From contig OY970325.1 of NCBI GenBank assembly GCA_963717145.1, positions 5,216,001 through 5,280,000 of the forward strand: DNA of 64,000 nucleotides. Direction: 5' to 3'. This document shows, piece by piece, positions 5,750-37,509 of this stretch. Below the pieces are notes generated by a model. That model saw only the letters and a program-made list of their open reading frames with translations. It had not been told where the DNA came from and ran no database searches. The first letter of the stretch is position 1. Each line of letters opens with the position of its first letter. The stretch is from an uncultured Armatimonadetes bacterium. Its GTDB lineage: Bacteria > Armatimonadota > UBA5829 > DTJY01. A program made the translations under genes and the position numbers.

Positions 5750-5777
5750 GTAGGGAACGTGCCGCCGTGCCGTTCCG
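5750..5777. repeat. Single GTAG-type REP-like hairpin
   Basis: GTAG-GGAACG-tgccgccgtgc-CGTTCC directly after the stop codon. Confidence 0.5.
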
Positions 5778-6052
5778 CAGCCAAGATGTCCCCCTTACGA
5801 AGGGGGACCGGCCTCTGGGCCGAGGGGGTTTCCGCGTGTGGGTGCGCATACAAACCTCCCCCGGCCTGCTGGCCGGCCCCTCCTTCGTAAGGAGGGGCGC
5901 AGACGGCTTCCGGGCCGAGGGGGTTGCCGCGCGCGGGTCCACGAAACGGAACCGCCAAGACGCCAAGGACGCCAAGCGAACCTCCCCCGGCCTGCTGGCC
6001 GGCCCCTCCTTCGTAAGGAGGGGCGCAGACGGCCTGCTGGCCGAGGAGGTTT
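5776..6052 (-). mobile_element. Gene-less (MITE/REPIN-like) copy of the DUF559-element ends plus a further tandem end copy
   Basis: 5781-5833 is the reverse complement of 10977-11030 (one mismatch, one indel); 5852-5898 is the exact reverse complement of 10505-10551; the left-end sequence recurs at 5979-6024. Confidence 0.8.
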
Positions 6053-6056
6053 CAAC

Positions 6057-8207
6057 ATGCGACAGATCGACTACAAGACATATCTCGACAAAGTGTACGG
6101 ATGCTGGATCGGCAAGTGCGTCGCCGGCACGATCGGCGCTCCCTATGAAGGCGCGAAGGAGCTGTTCGACTTCGAGTACGACCCGAAGCTGATCGAGAAG
6201 ATGCTCCCGAACGACGACCTCGACCTCCAGGTGCTCTGGCTGTCCGTCTTGGAAGAGAAAGGGATCGCCTTCACCTCCGACGACCTCGCCGATGCGTTCC
6301 TCAACAGGTGCAAGTACGCGCCCGGGGAGTACGCCTTCTTCAAGAAGAACTATGCCAGAGGCATCCATCCGCCGCTGAGTGGCGCGTACAACAACCGCTA
6401 CTACATCGAGGGAATGGGCTGCCCGATCCGCTCCGAGGTATGGGCCTGCATCGCTCCCGGCAACCCGCAACTCGCCGCCGAACTCGCGGCGAAGGACGGG
6501 GTGCTCGATCACGCGGGGAACTCGGTCTACGCCGAGCAGTTCCTCGCCGCACTCGAGGCCGCCGCGTTCTTCGAGAGCGACATCGGGAAGCTCGTCGAGA
6601 TCGGACTCAGTGTGATCCCCGAGGACTCGAAGATCGCCGGCCTGATCCGCGACGTCCGCGACTGGTGCCAGCTTGTGGGAGACGACTCGGGAGCGACTGT
6701 AGGGGCGTGCCTTGTGCCGCCTGTGACCGTCGACCAGGCGGCACAAGGCACGCCCCTACAGTCGCCTGTGACCGTCGACCAGGCGGCACAAGGCACGCCC
6801 CTACAGTCGCCTGCCGTAAGTGAGGACACCGGCGCTCCGGACTGGCGGTATGTCCGAAGCCAAATCCTGCGGAAGTACGGCCATCCGGACTGCACGAACA
6901 TGTACCAGAACATGGGGATCACGCTCCTGGCGCTCTTCCTGGGAAGGGACTTCCTCGACACGACCATGATGGCGCTCAACTGCGGGTTCGACACCGACTG
7001 CACCTGCGCGACCGCCGGCTCGGTGCTCGGCATCATCCAGGGCGCGGAGTACCTGAGCACGACGCACGAGTTCCCCGAGCAGCGCTTCAAGCTCGGAGTC
7101 GATGCGCCTCGCCGATCCGACCGCGTCCTCGATCTGGCCGAGGATACGTGCCTGATGGGCCTCCATTTCGCCGAGTACTTGAACAGGGATGTGGCGATCA
7201 TTGACGCGCCGAAGCCGCCTCAAATCGAGCGGCCGGAGTACGAAACGGTCAAGGTCTCGATCGATTACCAGGGAGTCCCGGCGATGGGCATCGGTGAGAC
7301 GCGAAAGATCAAGATTCTGTTTGACAACGAGCGCGTCAGCCCAGTCGGGATAGCGGTCTCCCTGACCGTCCCTGATGGCTGGGACGTATCCCCGACCTCC
7401 GCCGATCTGCTTCTCGATCCCGGCGTCAACTCCTGGGAGATCGAGGTGACCGTTCCGGCGGATATTCCGGTGCTGGATGAGCGGAACATGTTCGAGTTGG
7501 GATTCGATTCTTCCGCCGAGAGACCGGAAACCCCTCCCCAGCCCTCCCCGCAACGGAGAGGGAATCGCACTCTCTGCCCCCTCTCCGTTGCGGGGAGGGC
7601 TGGGGAGGGGTTTCCGGCTCGCTACCCATTCGGCATCGTCGGGGCGTCGGTGTGGGAAGTCTTCGGTCCATTCTGGCAGAACATCGGGCTCATCTCAGAG
7701 GGTACCAAGGACGAGATGGCGGATGTCGGCCGGATATACCACCTCAACACGCGCGTCGATCCCGACCGGGAGTACATGACGCTCGACGAGATTCTCGGGC
7801 CGAAGATCACCGGCGACGCGGCGAAGGAAGGGCAGGTCGTCTGCTTCGGCGAGGACCTGATGTCGATGTCGGACGCGGTCGGATTCCAGGGGCCGTGCGC
7901 GGTGTATATGGTGCGGCGGATGATCTCGCCGGAGGACCGAACGCTCGGGGTGCTCGTCGGCCATACGGACGCGTACAAGCTGTGGATCAATGGGGAACTG
8001 ATCAGCCGGCGGGACGACGTCGATTGGTGGACCGCCGAGAACGCGCACATCCACGGGGTGAAGATCAACAAGGGCGAGAACATGATCGTCCTGCAGATGA
8101 TCCGGCGCAGTTCCGAGGCGAAACTGAGCATCCTCTTCGTGAAGCGCGGCTCATGCTCCGAGCACTACTACGACTTCGCGTCGGTGAACCCGCGGCTCAG
8201 GGAGTAA
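6057..8207 (+). CDS. ADP-ribosylglycohydrolase family protein with C-terminal beta-sandwich domains; carries two in-frame palindromic insertions
   Basis: YLDKVYGCWIGK..AGTIGAPYEG, NDDLD and GFDTDC motifs; ATG 6057 after GAGGAGGT. Confidence 0.85.
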   Translation: MRQIDYKTYLDKVYGCWIGKCVAGTIGAPYEGAKELFDFEYDPKLIEKMLPNDDLDLQVLWLSVLEEKGIAFTSDDLADAFLNRCKYAPGEYAFFKKNYARGIHPPLSGAYNNRYYIEGMGCPIRSEVWACIAPGNPQLAAELAAKDGVLDHAGNSVYAEQFLAALEAAAFFESDIGKLVEIGLSVIPEDSKIAGLIRDVRDWCQLVGDDSGATVGACLVPPVTVDQAAQGTPLQSPVTVDQAAQGTPLQSPAVSEDTGAPDWRYVRSQILRKYGHPDCTNMYQNMGITLLALFLGRDFLDTTMMALNCGFDTDCTCATAGSVLGIIQGAEYLSTTHEFPEQRFKLGVDAPRRSDRVLDLAEDTCLMGLHFAEYLNRDVAIIDAPKPPQIERPEYETVKVSIDYQGVPAMGIGETRKIKILFDNERVSPVGIAVSLTVPDGWDVSPTSADLLLDPGVNSWEIEVTVPADIPVLDERNMFELGFDSSAERPETPPQPSPQRRGNRTLCPLSVAGRAGEGFPARYPFGIVGASVWEVFGPFWQNIGLISEGTKDEMADVGRIYHLNTRVDPDREYMTLDEILGPKITGDAAKEGQVVCFGEDLMSMSDAVGFQGPCAVYMVRRMISPEDRTLGVLVGHTDAYKLWINGELISRRDDVDWWTAENAHIHGVKINKGENMIVLQMIRRSSEAKLSILFVKRGSCSEHYYDFASVNPRLRE
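6693..6813. repeat. GTAGGGGCG-family REP doublet with 45-bp tandem duplication, in frame in CDS
   Basis: GCGACTGTAGGGGCGTGCCTTGTGCCGCCTG...CAGGCGGCACAAGGCACGCCCCTACAGTCGC; 45-nt unit twice (PVTVDQAAQGTPLQS x2). Confidence 0.9.
7524..7617. repeat. Perfect 39-bp inverted repeat (CCCCTCCCC..GGAGAGGG family), in frame in CDS
   Basis: CCGGAAACCCCTCCCCAGCCCTCCCCGCAACGGAGAGGG / 16-nt spacer / exact reverse complement. Confidence 0.9.
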
Positions 8208-8300
8208 GGGAGTGTGGGAGTATGGGAGTGTGGGGTATGGGAGTGTGGGAGTGTGGGAGTCCGGATCGCCCATACTCCCACACTCCCATACTCCCATACT
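8208..8300. repeat. Octamer GGGAGTRT tandem repeats in inverted arrangement between convergent genes
   Basis: About 6 GGGAGT(G/A)T units then (A(T/C)ACTCCC)n; related arrays at 9430-9520 and 37495-37515. Confidence 0.8.
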
Positions 8301-8306
8301 CTGCTA

Positions 8307-9206
8307 CTACTCCTCGTCGCCTCTGCCAAAGATGCGGGTCAGGAGGCCTGGCTTCCGGGGACTCTCGACCTCCGCCGGCTCATCGTCCGGCCAGTGGAGA
8401 TCGTTCGCGGCTGCATTCAGTCGGCGGAAGAGATCGTCCGCGGATTCATCCTGCTCGGTCTTATCCATGGAGTCGGCCTCAGATTGCGGCTTCACAATTG
8501 TTACCTGGGCGATCTCGGGTTCAGCCTCAGAGGCGGAGCGCGTCTCTTCGACCACCTCGGCCTCAACAGCGACCACCTCCTCACCTCGGGCTGACCGGGT
8601 CTCCGTGGGTCGAACGTCCCCCAGTGACTCCATGACAGGGGCGGGAGCGTCCACCGTCTGGGCGGAAGTGGTCTGTGCACTCGGCATCTCGACCGGCTCG
8701 GCTTCGACGTGCATCTCGGGCTTCGGCGACTCGACCTGCGGCGGAGAGGTCACGGGCGTCGTGACCGCGGAGACCTCTTTGGTCGGATCAGCCATTACCG
8801 GCCCGCTCGTCGTCCGGAAAATCTCGTCCTGCATCTCGCCGGCAAGCTCGTGTGTCCGGTGAAAGAGGTCGTTCACCCTGGACATGGTCTCTTCCCACTC
8901 GGGAGTGCCGCCGTCTTCGTTCTCCTTGGGGGCAGGCAGCTCCTTCACCAGATGCGTGAACTCGGCGGAGAGCGCCAGGTTTGTGTCCTGCATCTGGTGG
9001 AGCACCGAACTGGCGCGATGGAGCATATAGTTCAACTCGCGCTGGCGTTGAAGTAGTTCGGAGGCGATGTGGTTCATCGAGGTCTCGCGAGTGCGGAAGT
9101 CCTCGACCTGCTGCTGGAGAAGCTTGCTCCGTTCGGCCAGAACAGCCTTGTGCTTGAGCGCTCTGAGCAGCTTGTCCTTCATGTTCTCGCTGAAATCTGG
9201 TGACAC
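8307..9206 (-). CDS. Hypothetical protein, N-terminal coiled coil plus acidic low-complexity C-terminus
   Basis: 299-aa ORF, heptad-like N-terminal half, ends in GLLTRIFG amphipathic tail; GAGGG upstream. Confidence 0.7.
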   Translation of the reverse strand: MSPDFSENMKDKLLRALKHKAVLAERSKLLQQQVEDFRTRETSMNHIASELLQRQRELNYMLHRASSVLHQMQDTNLALSAEFTHLVKELPAPKENEDGGTPEWEETMSRVNDLFHRTHELAGEMQDEIFRTTSGPVMADPTKEVSAVTTPVTSPPQVESPKPEMHVEAEPVEMPSAQTTSAQTVDAPAPVMESLGDVRPTETRSARGEEVVAVEAEVVEETRSASEAEPEIAQVTIVKPQSEADSMDKTEQDESADDLFRRLNAAANDLHWPDDEPAEVESPRKPGLLTRIFGRGDEE

Positions 9207-9429
9207 GAATCATCCCTCGCTTGGTTCCCTGACGACTCCCGTCGTCGGGGATACTGGTACTTATACCAGGATTATCGGCGGTTTCGACGGCTTTTCTGAG
9301 GCGGCACTGCCAGTTCAAGTTTATCACCATTCTCGGAGGATGTAAACAAATGATGCCCGCCGACCCCTCATTCATCTCTACGCGTCACTCGGCCCAGGGG
9401 TTCCGGGTGAAGGAATCCGTCGTCCTGGA

Positions 9430-9520
9430 GGAGTATGGGAGTGTGGGAGAATGGGAGAATGGGAGTGTGGGAGTCCGGAACGCCCATACCCCCATTCTCC
9501 CACACCCCCATTCTCTCCCC
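9430..9520. repeat. Degenerate GGGAGTRT/GGGAGAAT octamer inverted array
   Basis: GGAGTATGGGAGTGTGGGAGAATGGGAGAATGGGAGTGTGGGAGT...CCCATACCCCCATTCTCCCACACCCCCATTCTC. Confidence 0.75.
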
Positions 9521-9532
9521 AGGAGGCATGCC

Positions 9533-10504
9533 ATGAAGAACCTCGCCAGGTTGCTGGTGATCCTTTCGATACTGACGCTCGTCGGGTGCAGCAAGCAGCC
9601 CAAACCATCCGGTCGCATCACGATCGCCGTCATCCCCAAGGGCACGATGCACGAGTTCTGGAAGACCGTCCATGCCGGCGCGGTCAAGGCATCGAAGGAA
9701 CTCGACGTAGATATCATCTGGAAAGGCCCGATGAAGGAGGACGACAGGGACGCCCAGATTGCGGTCGTCGAGGACTTCATCAGCAAGGGTGTCTCGGGCA
9801 TCGCGCTCGCCCCCCTCGACGACATGGCGCTCCGAGCACCGGTCGCCAATGCCACCAGGAGCGGCATCCCGGTCGTGATCTTCGACTCCGGCCTCCAGGG
9901 AAGCGACTTCATGAGCTTCGTCGCCACCGACAATCACAAGGGCGGACAGATCGCGGGCGACTATATGGCCAAGCTGCTCGGCGACAAGGGCAGCGTCATG
10001 ATGCTGCGGTACAACGAGGGATCGAACAGCACGATGCAGCGCGAGAAGGGCTTCCTCGATGCCATCGCCAGACATGCGGGCATCAAGGTCGTCAGTTCGA
10101 ACCAGTATGGCGGAGTGACCACTGAGAGCGCGTACAAGGCGGGCGAGAACCTGCTCTCCCGCTTCAAGGACGTTGACGGCATCTTCTGCCCGAACGAGTC
10201 GACCACCTTCGGCATGCTCCGCGCGCTTCAGGATGGCGGATATGCCGGCAAGGTGAAGTTCGTCGGCTTCGACGCGTCCCAGCAGCTCATCGACGGCATG
10301 AAGAAGGGGCAGATCGACGGTCTCGTGCTCCAGGACCCGATGTTCATGGGCTACATGGCGGTGAAAACCGTCGTCCAGAGCATCCGCGGCGCCCAGGTCG
10401 AGAATCGGATCGACACCGGCGCGAAACTCGTCACGCCTGAGAATATGGATACGCCCGAGATGAAGGCCCTCCTCCGCCCGGACCTCGACAAGTGGCTCAA
10501 GTAA
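9533..10504 (+). CDS. Sugar ABC transporter substrate-binding lipoprotein (RbsB-like)
   Basis: Lipobox LVGC; IAVIPKG..HEFW, VATDN..GG, VGFD motifs; AGGAGG upstream. Confidence 0.9.
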   Translation: MKNLARLLVILSILTLVGCSKQPKPSGRITIAVIPKGTMHEFWKTVHAGAVKASKELDVDIIWKGPMKEDDRDAQIAVVEDFISKGVSGIALAPLDDMALRAPVANATRSGIPVVIFDSGLQGSDFMSFVATDNHKGGQIAGDYMAKLLGDKGSVMMLRYNEGSNSTMQREKGFLDAIARHAGIKVVSSNQYGGVTTESAYKAGENLLSRFKDVDGIFCPNESTTFGMLRALQDGGYAGKVKFVGFDASQQLIDGMKKGQIDGLVLQDPMFMGYMAVKTVVQSIRGAQVENRIDTGAKLVTPENMDTPEMKALLRPDLDKWLK

Positions 10505-11030
10505 GCCCCTCCTTACGAAGGAGGGGCCGGCCAGCAGGCCGGGGGAGGTTTCCGGATGGGCTGCTGGATGCGCTGCCGCTTGCAGGGGGGTGGCCGGAGG
10601 AGGTTAGAGGCTTGACCGAGTTGTTCAACCGGAAGACGGTGACCGCCAGACGTCGAGCACTGCGCGCTATCATGCCCGAGCCGGAAGTCGTCCTGTGGTC
10701 CAAGTTGAAGGGCAGGCAGGTGGACGGCGTCAAGTTTCGCAGGCAGTACAGTGTCGGTCCGTACATCATCGACTTCTTCGCGCCAAAGGCCAAGCTTGCC
10801 ATAGAAGTGGATGGCGACACCCATTCTGCGGAGGGGGCTGGTGAGCGTGATAGACAGAGGCAAGCTTACATTGAGGGTTTTGGCATCCGTGTGCTTCGGT
10901 TCACAAACAGGGAGGTTCTGCGCAACTTAGACGGTGTGCTGGTGACGATACAACAAGCCATCTGCGAGGCCACGCCGGAAAACCCCCTCGGCCCAGAGGC
11001 CGGTCCCCCTTCGTAAGGGGGACATCTCGG
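10505..11030 (+). mobile_element. Candidate element: DUF559 endonuclease gene bounded by ~50-bp imperfect terminal inverted repeats, each with a CCTT-ACG-AAGG hairpin
   Basis: Left GCCCCTCCTTACGAAGGAGGGGCCGGCCAGCAGGCCGGGGGAGGTTTCC; right GGAAAACCCCCTCGGCCCAGAGGCCGGTCCCCCTTCGTAAGGGGGAC; interrupts the binding protein-permease operon. Confidence 0.75.
10612..11016 (+). CDS. DUF559 / Vsr-like endonuclease domain protein
   Basis: RRRALR..MPEPE..LW..L, KFRRQY.VGPYIIDF, LAIEVDGDTH, RD..R, G.RVLRFTN motifs; TTG start after GGAGG. Confidence 0.9.
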   Translation: MTELFNRKTVTARRRALRAIMPEPEVVLWSKLKGRQVDGVKFRRQYSVGPYIIDFFAPKAKLAIEVDGDTHSAEGAGERDRQRQAYIEGFGIRVLRFTNREVLRNLDGVLVTIQQAICEATPENPLGPEAGPPS

Positions 11031-11050
11031 TTGCGCCAGGTTGTCTTGAC

Positions 11051-12031
11051 ATGGAGATTTCGCAGTCAGAGACCAGAATGCGCGTCATGCTCACGTGGCT
11101 CAACCGGCTCGGGCCGGTGCTCGGGCTCGCGCTGGTCTACGGCCTGTTCGCGGCGCTCGCAGGTGAGAGCTTCACCGGCGTGCGGAATATGGAGACCATC
11201 GCGCGTCAGACCGCAGTCGTCGGGACCGCCGCGCTCGGGATGACGATGGTTATCATCGCCGGAGGGATCGATCTCTCGGTCGGCTCGATCATCGCGCTCA
11301 GCACAGTCACGATCGCCTCATGCCTTGCGAAGGGCTTCAGCCCGCTCACGGCCGCATTCGCCGGAATCATCGCAGGACTGATCTGCGGCCTCATCAACGG
11401 TTTCATCATCACCCGCTTGCGAGTCGTGCCGTTTATCGTCACGCTCGGCACGCTGCTCGCGGTTCGGGGCATCGCCAAAGGATTCGCCCACGAGCAGAAG
11501 GTGAACGCGCCGTGGACCTCGCTGAACGACCTGCTCGCCACTCTCCCTCCCGACAAGCACTGGATGATCGTCCCGCCGGGCGTATGGATCATGCTCATCA
11601 TGGCGGTCGGGGTGGCGGTGATGCTACGTTACTCGCGATTCGGCAGGCACGTCTTCGCGATCGGATCGAGCGAGCAGACCTCGAGGCTCTCGGGGATCGA
11701 TGTGCAGCGGATGAAGCTGATGGTCTATGCCGGGAGCGCCGCCTTCGCCGGGCTCGCTGGGTTGATGCAGTTCTCGCGCCTGACCGTCGGCGACCCGACC
11801 GCCGCGACGGGCCTCGAACTCGATATTATCGCCGCTGTCGTGATCGGCGGTGGGAGCCTTTCCGGCGGCGAGGGATCGGTGTTCGGGGCGTTGATCGGCG
11901 CGCTGATCATGACCGTCATCCGATCCGGATGCTCTCAGATAGGCCTCGAGAACTGGGTGCAGGAGATCATCACCGGCGGCATCATCGTCGTCGCGGTAGC
12001 CCTCGATCGCCTGCGCCACCGGGCGCGGTGA
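11051..12031 (+). CDS. Sugar ABC transporter permease (RbsC-like)
   Basis: GGIDLSVGS, PFIVTLG, FGRHVFAIGS, ELDIIAAVVIGG.SL.GG.GS motifs. Confidence 0.92.
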   Translation: MEISQSETRMRVMLTWLNRLGPVLGLALVYGLFAALAGESFTGVRNMETIARQTAVVGTAALGMTMVIIAGGIDLSVGSIIALSTVTIASCLAKGFSPLTAAFAGIIAGLICGLINGFIITRLRVVPFIVTLGTLLAVRGIAKGFAHEQKVNAPWTSLNDLLATLPPDKHWMIVPPGVWIMLIMAVGVAVMLRYSRFGRHVFAIGSSEQTSRLSGIDVQRMKLMVYAGSAAFAGLAGLMQFSRLTVGDPTAATGLELDIIAAVVIGGGSLSGGEGSVFGALIGALIMTVIRSGCSQIGLENWVQEIITGGIIVVAVALDRLRHRAR

Positions 12032-37249: not shown

Positions 37250-37393
37250 TGCGGAATGCGGATTGCGGAATGGGGCGGGGACGATGGGGTCCCCGCCCAT
37301 CCTGCATTCTTGTCTGAGCCGGACGAAAGACACCGGCATACTCAGGGCTGACGGGGTGGGGGAGCGAACACCTGTGCCCAACATGCTCCTTCG

Positions 37394-37494
37394 AAAGAAA
37401 CTCCCTACTGGGTGGGCGGGCGGGTACAAACTCCGGGAACGGCGACCGCATCCGGAGTTTGTACCCGCCCGCCCACCCAGTAGGGAGTTTCTTT
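37394..37494. repeat. Perfect 43-bp inverted repeat between convergent genes
   Basis: AAAGAAACTCCCTACTGGGTGGGCGGGCGGGTACAAACTCCGG-N15-reverse complement. Confidence 0.9.
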
Positions 37495-37509
37495 TACTCC
37501 CATACTCCC

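Follow-up and report, generated by a model that had tools for sequence, protein, structure and literature searches.

A gene for a small nuclease of the DUF559 family, enclosed by two inverted, structured repeat modules, forms a discrete insertion of ~520 bp (positions 10505 to about 11027) between the binding-protein and permease genes of an ABC transporter in an uncultured Armatimonadetes bacterium. The window, i.e., the whole stretch of DNA that was analysed, comprises 64,000 nucleotides of a genome that is one closed contig. The association of such genes with such repeats is non-random and recurs across phyla, the stem type of the repeats follows the clade of the protein, and the cognate hairpin is amplified where the cognate gene is present. 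The cassette points to a possible enzyme partner of bacterial repeats that have long lacked an explanation.

The features of the locus are listed in Table 1. An initial, sequence-only reading had placed the DUF559 ORF between inverted hairpin ends, the left end following directly on the stop codon of the binding-protein gene and the TAA of the nuclease gene lying in the right hairpin, and we were able to confirm all of this. The stop codon of the binding-protein ORF is the TAA at 10502-10504, and the orthologues of this gene (60-82% identity) have the same W-L-K-stop ending. The permease gene lies 546 nt past that stop; in eight relatives, the first aligned permease residue was found -7 to 118 nt past it. 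The junction was uninterrupted in eight of the nine relatives with an orthologous binding protein, and DUF559 was there in none, showing that the gene is not syntenic at this locus. At the orthologous locus in these relatives, which are not of the same species, the repeats were absent as well as the gene; in the genome of the window, empty L-R pairs were found at other loci. The binding-protein/permease junction of ABC operons is a classic position for REP elements, and effects of the cassette on operon expression are open to study too. Of the public sequencing runs, seven contained 4-8% of the sampled words, and no RNA run was among those listed.

Table 1. Features of the DUF559 cassette, its neighbours and the gene-less units in the window
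Feature	Position	Strand	Details
Sugar-type periplasmic binding-protein gene	9350..10504	+	PF13407, E 3.7e-66; native stop abuts the cassette
Left (L) module	10505..10551	+	Hairpin, nested hairpin, G-box; from sequence
Cassette leader	10552..10611	+	Includes a ribosome-binding site for the nuclease gene itself, GGAGGAGG (10596-10603)
DUF559 / Vsr-fold PD-(D/E)xK nuclease gene	10612..11016	+	PF04480; 134 aa, predicted TTG start
Right (R) module	10975..11024	-	Inverted; from sequence and fold; includes the gene's stop codon
ABC permease gene	11051..12031	+	PF02653, E 1.5e-49; split from the binding-protein gene by the insertion
Gene-less R-L unit	5788..5898	-	Inverted; 20 nt between modules; one long hairpin
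Second, partial unit	5904..6051	-	R remnant without hairpin, interior with CGCCAAGA repeats, L at 5979-6024, extra box at 6030-6051

Small nucleases of the DUF559 family are very widespread, and to our knowledge almost no function has been assigned to them. The frame in the window is open across 10492-11016, and the start codon is most likely the TTG that lies 3' of the GGAGGAGG motif; the two closest homologues start at the equivalent position, with TTG or GTG. The leader upstream of it is single-copy in the genome by blastn. The protein matched the PF04480 profile over positions 3-108 of 109 (E 1.1e-29; 102.9 bits, cut-off 20.6), contained all 16 invariant columns of a 12-sequence alignment, and has both the E-x-D-G-x-x-H core and the R-F-x-N motif. 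Residues E65, D67, G68, H71, R96 and N99, which we take to be catalytic, were invariant in all 12 aligned sequences, ours included. By sequence it matched PDB entry 3HRL (E 1.3e-17), and the structure model (pLDDT 80.5) superimposed on the same entry with a TM score of 0.94 (rmsd 1.5 Å). The stop codon (11014-11016) falls within the right hairpin (CCCCCTT-CGT-AAGGGGG), in its loop region, and the R module encodes the last ~14 residues of the protein, of which residues 124-133 are predicted to be disordered (pLDDT below 50).

The L module opens with a hairpin whose stems, CCCCTCCTT (10506-10514) and AAGGAGGGG (10518-10526), enclose the loop ACG; then come a nested hairpin, CGGCC-AGCA-GGCCG (10528-10541), and a G-box, GGGGAGGTTT (10542-10551), that mirrors the purine arm. 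Folded as DNA with ViennaRNA, which considers Watson-Crick pairs only, it gave two adjacent hairpins at -18.4 kcal/mol (z -3.9). Read on the minus strand, the R module has the stem GTCCCCCTT, the loop ACG, the stem AAGGGGGAC, a nested hairpin and the G-box GGGGGTT. Compared with L, two bases are absent from each of its three strands (TC, GA and AG), i.e., there is three-way co-variation. The two ends of the cassette are imperfect inverted repeats, with an alignment score of 44 (shuffle mean 19.7, maximum 28). Under the mirror, or purine-motif, rule, by which G faces G and either A or T faces A, the L box GGGGAGGTT and the R box GGGGGTT have one mismatch each, at the outer base. To judge from these letters, the G-box would be a triplex-compatible mirror block; it could also act in a G-quadruplex or in recognition by a protein.

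The initial reading had described two copies of the element, the second being a gene-less copy with both ends at 5776-5898, inverted overall. Arm complementarity bears out this second copy: positions 5852-5898 are 100% complementary to 10505-10551, and positions 5776-5848 are 88% complementary to 10963-11035. As DNA, the unit at 5788..5898 folds with -42 kcal/mol (z -6.1). However, the family is not limited to two members: at a minimum length of 30 nt, the genome contains 25 L modules and 56 R modules. Over 46-47 nt, 21 of the 25 L modules are 100% identical, and 20 of the 25 pair with an R module in the geometry of the cassette; a generic finder returned 23 inverted '+-' pairs. Modules also occur singly and in tandem, and most pairs enclose 9-57 nt. 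Among about 20 L-R pairs, one is filled with a gene, and this is the one gene-bearing copy of the L/R cassette in the genome.

The picture of one filled unit beside gene-less relatives thus stood, but the proposal that the latter arose by interior deletion did not, since most of them have a conserved interior of their own (~50 nt, with (TCTTGGCG)n). We found no nested series of gene remnants among the gene-less units, and alignment of the 150 nt inward of every R module with the cassette gave no match apart from the cassette itself; the deletion-derivative model was rejected. Weak tblastn matches to residues 113-134 represent the translated R module rather than remnants of the gene, and the hit at C1:2982323 (E 0.018) had no DNA homology inward. 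A 243-nt L-R interior at C1:4529225-4529466, considered as a possible second cargo gene, proved to be the usual interior split by a ~150-nt palindromic element, with no gene. No target-site duplication or flanking direct repeat was visible by eye in the 21 units listed.

Homologues of the nuclease elsewhere have flanks of the same kind. At 98 DUF559 loci, an inward-facing triplex-type module was present on both sides in 51, on one side in 21 and on neither in 26, and modules were enriched beside the genes, with 123/195 proximal windows positive as against 1/195 shuffled and 17/181 distal windows. The shuffled and distal windows replaced a 'wrong orientation' control, in which 25 upstream windows and 34 downstream windows were positive; with further modules and arrays close to many genes, that control cannot serve as a null. 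The asymmetric L...R pairing was also found at the two closest homologues in relatives (54-55% identical, one of them in another family), and the L-gene-R orientation held in 3/3 genomes examined. With short stems, the mirror rule did not discriminate from a direct-repeat rule (109 versus 86 of 195 windows). A stricter test at loci with asymmetric stems was moderately informative (mirror rule 67/195 windows, direct-repeat rule 41/195); most windows obeying the direct-repeat rule have a mirror-symmetric GGGAGAGGG core, so that the two rules are indistinguishable there.

The stem type of the flanking hairpin co-varies with the protein tree, a relationship that the sequence-only reading had put forward for checking. 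Stem class changed 20 times on the tree, compared with a mean of 30 and a minimum of 24 on shuffling (0/300 shuffles reached 20), for stem classes that were set after inspection of the data and genomes that, being related, are not independent. The clade of our own protein (SH-aLRT 89; 11 rows) spans five named phyla plus the window's lineage, and almost all of its members have AAGG-type stems. Among 41 relatives, the L hairpin occurred in four, with 25-34 copies each, and all four have DUF559; the R core reached five or more copies in six, all with DUF559, versus 8 of the 35 others. In five genomes of other phyla with the closest homologues, one of which (G042) is flagged as unpublished, the R core was present in 86, 12, 45, 11 and 21 copies. 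Counting either the L hairpin or the TMECO motif, DUF559 was found in 9 of the 11 genomes with five or more copies, versus 5 of the 30 below that number. Three outcomes had been named in advance as refuting a link between gene and repeats, i.e., no enrichment beside DUF559 genes, homologues without flanks, and vertical synteny, and none of them was observed.

The repeats are not of a new kind: they fit the intrastrand-triplex design published for the BoxC/PIT/TM_ECO repeats (Holder et al., 2015, NAR, PMC4666352). Such repeats were already known decades ago; in vitro they form triplexes, and they are markers of unstable loci. The likeness extends from the order of parts, in which a hairpin of a C-rich and a complementary G-rich arm around a short loop is followed by another loop and another G-rich block suited to a purine-motif triplex, to an intergenic, dispersed and highly conserved occurrence, with a copy number that differs sharply between related genomes. 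Both L (CCCCTCCTT-ACG-AAGGAGGGG) and R (CCCCCTT-ACG-AAGGGGG) have the complementary arms and a loop within the 3-6 nt of the design. They do not match the TM_ECO consensus, CCCTCNCCC N3-6 GGGNGAGGG N3 GGGNGAGGG, because their stems (CCCCTCCTT, CCCCCTT) differ from CCCTCNCCC and their second loop is a 13-nt nested hairpin rather than 3 nt; L/R is thus a variant of the class and not TM_ECO itself. Unlike the published repeats, the L/R units are inverted pairs, one of which holds a nuclease gene. The main text of PMC4666352 states that mobility functions were never found near TM_ECO sites in its survey, and contains neither DUF559 nor ycjD. Our genome has 58 sites that match the published TM_ECO pattern exactly, and these belong to a family separate from L/R. 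Besides L/R, the genome contains two triplex-type families, one of about 64 modules of the GGGAGAGGG type and one of about 48 of the CGGGGAGGG type; neither has a DUF559 gene residing in it, and both pair the other way round, with the hairpins inward. Among the openly accessible main texts searched, no paper linking DUF559 to triplex-type repeats was found, those mentioning DUF559 being judged by title or abstract.

In REP/REPIN systems, a REP-associated tyrosine transposase (RAYT) is encoded beside inverted palindromic repeats. The parallel with these systems that had been drawn from the layout holds, in that a filled unit accompanies many gene-less units in an arrangement not due to chance, within a family that lacks a RAYT. 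Common to both are short palindromic repeats, inverted pairs, many copies, an enzyme gene flanked by repeats, and a repeat type specific to the enzyme lineage. However, the enzyme here is a PD-(D/E)xK nuclease of the Vsr fold and not an HUH/Y1 transposase, and the L/R modules have a third, mirror-repeat strand and lack the GTAG-type 5' motif found beside the Y1 genes of this genome. None of the eight Y1_Tnp (PF01797) matches in the genome is flanked by L/R modules, the nearest L/R pair being 1 kb from one of them; each is flanked by a different repeat family, and RAYT was therefore rejected as the mobiliser of the L/R modules. The units also resemble IS/MITE pairs, in which terminal inverted repeats are shared by one gene-bearing and many gene-less units; the gene-less units have the ends alone in common, as is the case for many MITEs. 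They differ from these in having DUF559 as the sole enclosed gene, with no transposase family in the L/R units, in showing no target-site duplication by eye, and in having ends that are structured hairpin-plus-box modules.

The explanation that we favour, although tentatively and with somewhat less than even confidence, is a selfish DUF559 cassette with gene-less L-R pairs as its non-autonomous partners, the nuclease acting on the modules. Gene and modules would be one unit, inherited and horizontally transferred jointly, and the gene-less pairs would correspond by analogy to the REPINs that accompany a RAYT. What the nuclease does to the modules, and how these are copied, we infer as follows: the enzyme may recognise the module in folded form, be it a hairpin, a triplex or a cruciform made by a pair, and may nick or cut at or beside it, after which host repair and recombination would place copies of module pairs, and now and then of the gene-bearing unit, at new sites. 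Pointing away from the cassette model are the interiors of the gene-less units, the lack of a visible target-site duplication, the gene-free triplex families, the repeats without a matching small DUF559 in three other genomes (G006, G026 and G035), the single gene-bearing copy in this genome, and the 26/98 loci without a module by the rule used.

A wider proposal is that DUF559 nucleases, as PD-(D/E)xK proteins of roughly 110-130 residues, are the missing enzyme partners of the BoxC/PIT/TM_ECO repeats, the two together making up a distinct class of phylum-spanning minimal mobile elements. The nuclease would recognise non-B DNA (a triplex, hairpin or cruciform) at the ends of its own element, and would drive its horizontal spread as well as the amplification of the gene-less pairs. 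We regard this as possible, albeit doubtful. If true, the pairing would give a testable role to both DUF559 and these repeats, and would add a second enzyme class to a nuclease-plus-palindromic-repeat lifestyle so far represented by RAYT/REPIN, i.e., a nuclease-based counterpart with a different chemistry. As a test case, this genome offers eight RAYT/REP systems as internal controls beside one intact gene-bearing cassette, together with about 20 near-identical gene-less pairs and two gene-free triplex-type families.

The pairs might instead spread or persist without DUF559, with a free-standing gene like that of a homing endonuclease targeting the pair centre; the filled pair would then be a homed site and the gene-less pairs empty targets. 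The gene does lie precisely between the two boxes of an L-R pair, and the nearest solved structure of known function is the I-Bth0305I catalytic domain (3R3P; E 6.7e-5, TM 0.79), which shares the nuclease fold and comes from a gene devoted to its own propagation. The gene-less units, with their own conserved interior not derived from the gene, are as expected for such targets, as are module families that lack a resident gene, in this genome and in three others: G026 and G035 have TMECO-type motifs (5 and 13 copies) without a small DUF559, and G006 has 25 L-type hairpins but a different stem type at its single DUF559. Nevertheless, we consider a homing origin unlikely. Only one of about 20 L-R pairs is filled, even though 21/25 L modules are identical; in unrelated phyla, amplification of the same hairpin type coincides exactly with the presence of the cognate protein clade, which is more easily explained by repeats that arrive with the gene; and, whereas 3R3P is by its PDB title the catalytic domain of a homing endonuclease, the DUF559 protein is a free-standing one of 134 aa with no intron or intein context.

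It is less probable again, to the point of being quite improbable, that gene and repeats have no functional link, with DUF559 serving the host as a Vsr-like repair or methylation-guard nuclease similar to Caulobacter VsrA, and folded repeats gathering around small horizontally acquired genes or acting as terminators or insulators. VsrA is a DUF559-domain protein that, according to PMC12907096, causes an SOS response upon deletion of a solitary cytosine methyltransferase, and that is proposed there to be a T:G mismatch endonuclease. It belongs with our protein to the same superfamily and fold, and in both cases the gene is stand-alone and unlinked to a methyltransferase, as the same text reports for vsrA. 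Vsr itself was a fold match (1VSR/1CW0, E ~0.02; 1VSR, TM 0.55), and the repeats are numerous throughout the genome, for the most part a long way from any DUF559 gene. Against this, the Pfam Vsr family (PF03852) gave no match at E 0.001 or below, only PF04480 and PF18741 being reported, and the neighbouring genes encode transporter components, i.e., the binding protein and permease, and not a methyltransferase. Moreover, modules flank the gene on both sides in fixed inward orientation at 51/98 loci, compared with 17/181 positive distal windows, stem type tracks protein clade across phyla, and within 3 kb no other gene in this genome lies inside a same-family inward-facing module pair. A role in mismatch repair would account neither for the inverted modules at each end of the gene nor for the way in which they co-vary with the protein.

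Finally, an invertible switch, in which the segment flips at the inverted modules and toggles either the nuclease gene itself or transcriptional read-through towards the permease gene, is very improbable: a survey (PMC9881135) found an enrichment of 'DUF559 domain-containing protein' (odds ratio 14.3) among its predicted programmed-inversion targets, but that prediction rests on inverted repeats at genes, which suffice alone to produce the enrichment, and the neighbouring ORFs scanned include no recombinase or invertase gene, while most module pairs enclose a span (9-57 nt) unsuited to a switch.

Two observations on other members of the nuclease family bear on the cassette model. The closest homologue in genome G008 has an in-frame TAG, which counts against it. 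In its favour, a second DUF559 gene in our own genome, at C1:890862-891205, likewise lies between inverted ends, and these are common to about nine gene-less palindromes of another family.

The sequence-only reading had described a DUF559 gene inside inverted ends, abutting the stop codon of a sugar-binding-protein gene, and this layout was confirmed. The two cassette ends are imperfect inverted repeats, with a score of 44, when shuffled sequences gave a mean of 19.7 and a maximum of 28. The DUF559 frame likely starts at the TTG at 10612, preceded by GGAGGAGG at 10596-10603; the start residue is the same in the two closest homologues, where the codon is TTG or GTG. The R module encodes the final ~14 residues of the protein, a stretch that the structure model shows as disordered. 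The protein retains every invariant alignment column, and its gene, whose interior is single copy, is one of only two DUF559 genes in the source genome (G000; 5.37 Mb in a single contig, C1). The cassette is real and belongs to a widespread pairing, apparently unpublished, of DUF559 nuclease genes with folded repeats of the BoxC/PIT class; no paper linking DUF559 to such repeats was found in the literature searched.

Features of the cassette and examples of gene-less unit interiors (bare coordinates, window; C1, genome coordinates)
Feature	Position	Basis
Binding-protein ORF (PF13407)	TAA at 10502-10504	sequence and Pfam
L module, 47 nt	10505-10551; first base directly after binding-protein stop	sequence
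DUF559 frame (PF04480, E 1.1e-29)	TAA at 11014-11016	sequence and Pfam
R module, inverted	10975-11024; hairpin loop region contains DUF559 stop	sequence
Permease gene (PF02653)	start 11051	sequence and Pfam
Gene-less unit interior, examples	5950-5978; C1:645472-645522; C1:984737-984787; others	

Binding-protein orthologues with 60-82% identity occur at readable loci in nine relatives, none of which has DUF559 at that locus. The permease orthologue lies directly next in eight of them, its first aligned residue falling -7 to 118 nt past the stop, and in G038 the permease is absent from the binding-protein locus. The terminal W-L-K-stop shared by the orthologues places the start of the cassette directly behind the native stop codon; the uninterrupted permease junction in relatives, lacking DUF559, makes the gene non-syntenic here. 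Vertical, syntenic inheritance was thus not borne out, and the cassette is an insertion. In the region 9350-9600 the listed binding-protein ORF (start 9350) is probably overlong: alignment to orthologues sets in only at residues 34-80, and the palindrome of 8-nt repeats falls within the first 60 codons. Palindromes at 8185-8310 and 9422-9524, built of 8-nt periodic repeats (GGGAGTGT/GGGAGAAT and complements), are inverted relative to each other (70 nt, 74%) and enclose a ~1.1-kb segment whose ORFs gave no Pfam matches.

Each module consists of a C-rich arm, a 3-nt loop, a G-rich arm, a 13-nt nested hairpin and a G-rich box, i.e., CCCCTCCTT-ACG-AAGGAGGGG ... GGGGAGGTT in L and CCCCCTT-ACG-AAGGGGG ... 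GGGGGTT in R. The box mirrors the purine arm, with T permitted opposite A, in keeping with the pairing rule of an antiparallel purine-motif third strand. A 2-nt indel, present in each of the three segments (TC, GA, AG), separates L from R, and the segments therefore co-vary. The published "intrastrand triplex" pattern of BoxC/PIT/TM_ECO repeats, as given in the text of Holder et al. 2015 (PMC4666352), is CCCTCNCCC N3-6 GGGNGAGGG N3 GGGNGAGGG. L and R share this three-segment design, with stems that depart from the consensus and a second loop that is expanded and self-pairing; they are a putatively triplex-forming variant of it. Alternatively, the box may form a G-quadruplex or serve purely as a protein-recognition element. 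In fold predictions, L or R as single-stranded DNA gives two neighbouring hairpins with the box unpaired, and an L-R pair a single long hairpin (-42 kcal/mol, z -6.1).

Counting modules no shorter than 30 nt, the source genome contains 25 L and 56 R copies. Of the 25 L copies, 21 are identical across 46-47 nt and 20 are paired with R in the cassette geometry (boxes inward, hairpins outward). Spacers are 9-12 nt (nine pairs), 20-21, 41, 51-57 (six pairs), 100, 108, 242 and 423 nt, the last holding the DUF559 gene. Many R modules that seem to stand alone lead into the interior shared by most gene-less units (below), and then into a degenerate L. A generic finder of triplex-type modules (stem of at least 8) detected 215 modules in this genome, against zero in a megabase of shuffled sequence; they fall into four groups: L, R, GGGAGAGGG (TM_ECO-type, ~64) and CGGGGAGGG (~48). 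The latter two families have the opposite pairing geometry (65 pairs with hairpins inward) and no resident DUF559 in this genome, where the sole gene within a same-family inward-facing pair of up to 3 kb is DUF559. A perfect 39-nt inverted repeat at 7524-7617 is a hairpins-inward pair from the CGGGGAGGG family (stem CCCTCCCCG/CGGGGAGGG), the third triplex-type family here. L or R modules flank none of the eight Y1_Tnp (RAYT-like) matches in the genome, each of which has a different repeat family at its flanks, in several cases with GTAG-type motifs. With regard to the known mobiliser of REP elements, L/R is therefore an orphan.

A gene-less copy of the same element had been proposed at 5776-5898. 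Both ends do recur there, 20 nt apart, with 100% complementarity to the cassette ends in one arm and 88% in the other, but the interior was not derived by deletion. Most gene-less units share a ~50-nt interior of their own, i.e., TCTTGGCG (CGCCAAGA) octamers in two or three tandem copies and then GGTTCC, and of all R modules in the genome only that of the cassette has homology that extends into the gene; we therefore rejected the idea that these units are the cassette minus its interior. No target-site duplication was apparent by eye in the listed unit flanks. This evidence, together with the two triplex-type families that lack a DUF559 gene and pair in the opposite geometry, is against a simple MITE reading. 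At C1:4529225-4529466 the unit interior is broken by a ~150-nt palindromic element with ends GCGGATTTGTAATCCAGC, a repeat nested in a repeat.

Of the 41 genomes compared (G000 included; all relatives lie outside its genus), 14 carry small stand-alone DUF559 genes; the remaining weak PF04480 matches are parts of large proteins, mostly open frames of 1000-1740 aa. Of 18 DUF559 loci from these genomes, 13 had a flank inverted-repeat score above all 30 shuffles, and the inverted arms are hairpin-plus-box modules. The closest two homologues, at 54-55% identity (one in G008, one in G031 from another family), are preceded by an L-type module and followed by an R-type hairpin, as in the cassette. G008 carries a second DUF559 gene flanked by TM_ECO-type modules, and across that genome there are 30 L-type hairpins and 148 TM_ECO-type motifs; this makes two DUF559 genes, each with its own amplified repeat family. 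Many copies of the L hairpin (26, 25, 30 and 34) were found in four of the 41 genomes, all with DUF559. With a threshold of at least five copies, chosen because each gene itself supplies up to two motifs, the R core CCCCTT-N3-AAGGGG marked six genomes, all with DUF559 (versus 8/35 of the rest), and the L hairpin or TM_ECO motif marked 11, nine with DUF559 (versus 5/30), related genomes being non-independent. Motifs without a small DUF559 gene occur in G026 (5 copies) and G035 (13 copies), and G006 has 25 L-type hairpins, yet its sole DUF559 gene has another stem type.

A scan with the cassette protein, at one genome per species, added 80 loci from many phyla (33-55% identity). Like flanks at other homologues were indeed found: among the 98 loci, inward-facing triplex-type modules lie on both sides in 51, on one side in 21 and on neither in 26. 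Modules occurred in 123/195 proximal windows, 1/195 shuffled windows and 17/181 distal windows. Stems vary widely (e.g., AAGGGGGAGAT, AAAGAGGGG, GGGGAAGG, GGGAGAAGG) and the box mirrors each; in several lineages the second loop again contains a nested hairpin. The co-variation of stem with protein phylogeny, a check also proposed earlier, was upheld on a tree of 76 rows, 56 of them labelled (22 of the 98 were dropped for in-frame stops or lengths below 85 aa): five stem classes required 20 changes, whereas shuffled labels averaged 30.0 and never needed fewer than 24 (0/300 reached 20), with classes set after data inspection, labels shared among kin and modest tree support. The cassette protein falls in a clade of 11 rows (SH-aLRT 89) that spans its own lineage, Acidobacteriota, Pseudomonadota, a candidate-phylum bacterium and Myxococcota, and nearly all members have AAGG-type stems, often with an identical ACG/CGT loop. 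Five genomes of those other phyla hold 86, 12 (G042), 45, 11 and 21 copies of the R core, against 0-1 of the reversed pattern; the G042 count, like locus L058 of the wider sample, comes from a genome flagged unpublished. Gene and repeat type therefore travel together, with the repeat amplified where they land.

We tentatively prefer, at somewhat short of an even chance, a reading in which the DUF559 nuclease would mobilise the repeats. That the nuclease instead homes into the repeats is rather doubtful. By sequence, the sole solved relative is 3HRL, an "endonuclease-like protein" (E 1.3e-17), which is also the best fold match of the structure model (TM 0.94; pLDDT 80.5), ahead of the catalytic domain of the homing endonuclease I-Bth0305I (E 6.7e-5), 5hmC-specific restriction enzymes and Vsr. 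The presence of Vsr among these predicted fold matches would suit a repair nuclease unlinked to the repeats, a proposal based on a 2026 paper on Caulobacter VsrA, a DUF559-domain protein that, according to that work, triggers an SOS response in cells lacking a solitary cytosine methyltransferase (PMC12907096); the 51 loci with inward modules on both sides, set against 17/181 distal windows, make it distinctly unlikely, and less likely than mobilising or homing. Also less likely than those two, and very improbable, is that the inverted modules form an inversion switch. In a 2023 survey, predicted programmed-inversion targets are enriched for "DUF559 domain-containing protein" (odds ratio 14.3), an entry given no comment in the section concerned (PMC9881135); we read it as an independent trace of inverted repeats flanking DUF559.

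A partial parallel to the cassette exists in E. coli K-12 (locus L029, NC_000913.3, 1351040-1351410). The 3' end of ycjD, an annotated DUF559 gene, overlaps a degenerate CCCTCTCCC hairpin, and within ~170 nt downstream lie a duplicated ycjD 3'-end fragment and then a canonical BoxC motif, which together resemble what is left of another cassette end; no module was evident upstream. Holder et al. 2015 (PMC4666352) state that mobility functions were never found near TM_ECO sites, and their main text mentions neither DUF559 nor ycjD.

The second DUF559 gene of the source genome (C1:890862-891205; element C1:890825-891260, outside the window) is 39% identical to the first and lies between inverted ACTGGGTGGG(Y)GG copies. 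Its ends also bound about nine gene-less palindromes of ~90 nt (ACTGGGTGGGCGGGCGGGTACAAACTCCGG ... inverted); one copy is found 600 nt downstream of this second gene, another in the window at ~37383-37500. In the G-rich arm of these palindromes, a four-tract motif of G-quadruplex type takes the place of a triplex module. The Y1_Tnp (RAYT/IS200-like) matches lie at C1:242007, 827258, 1557731, 3783917, 4205435, 4479024, 4878242 and 5159789, and the hairpin-repeat families beside them have up to 261 genomic matches, an unusually rich REP/RAYT set for one genome; the family beside C1:827258 is present in the window at 6693-6810.
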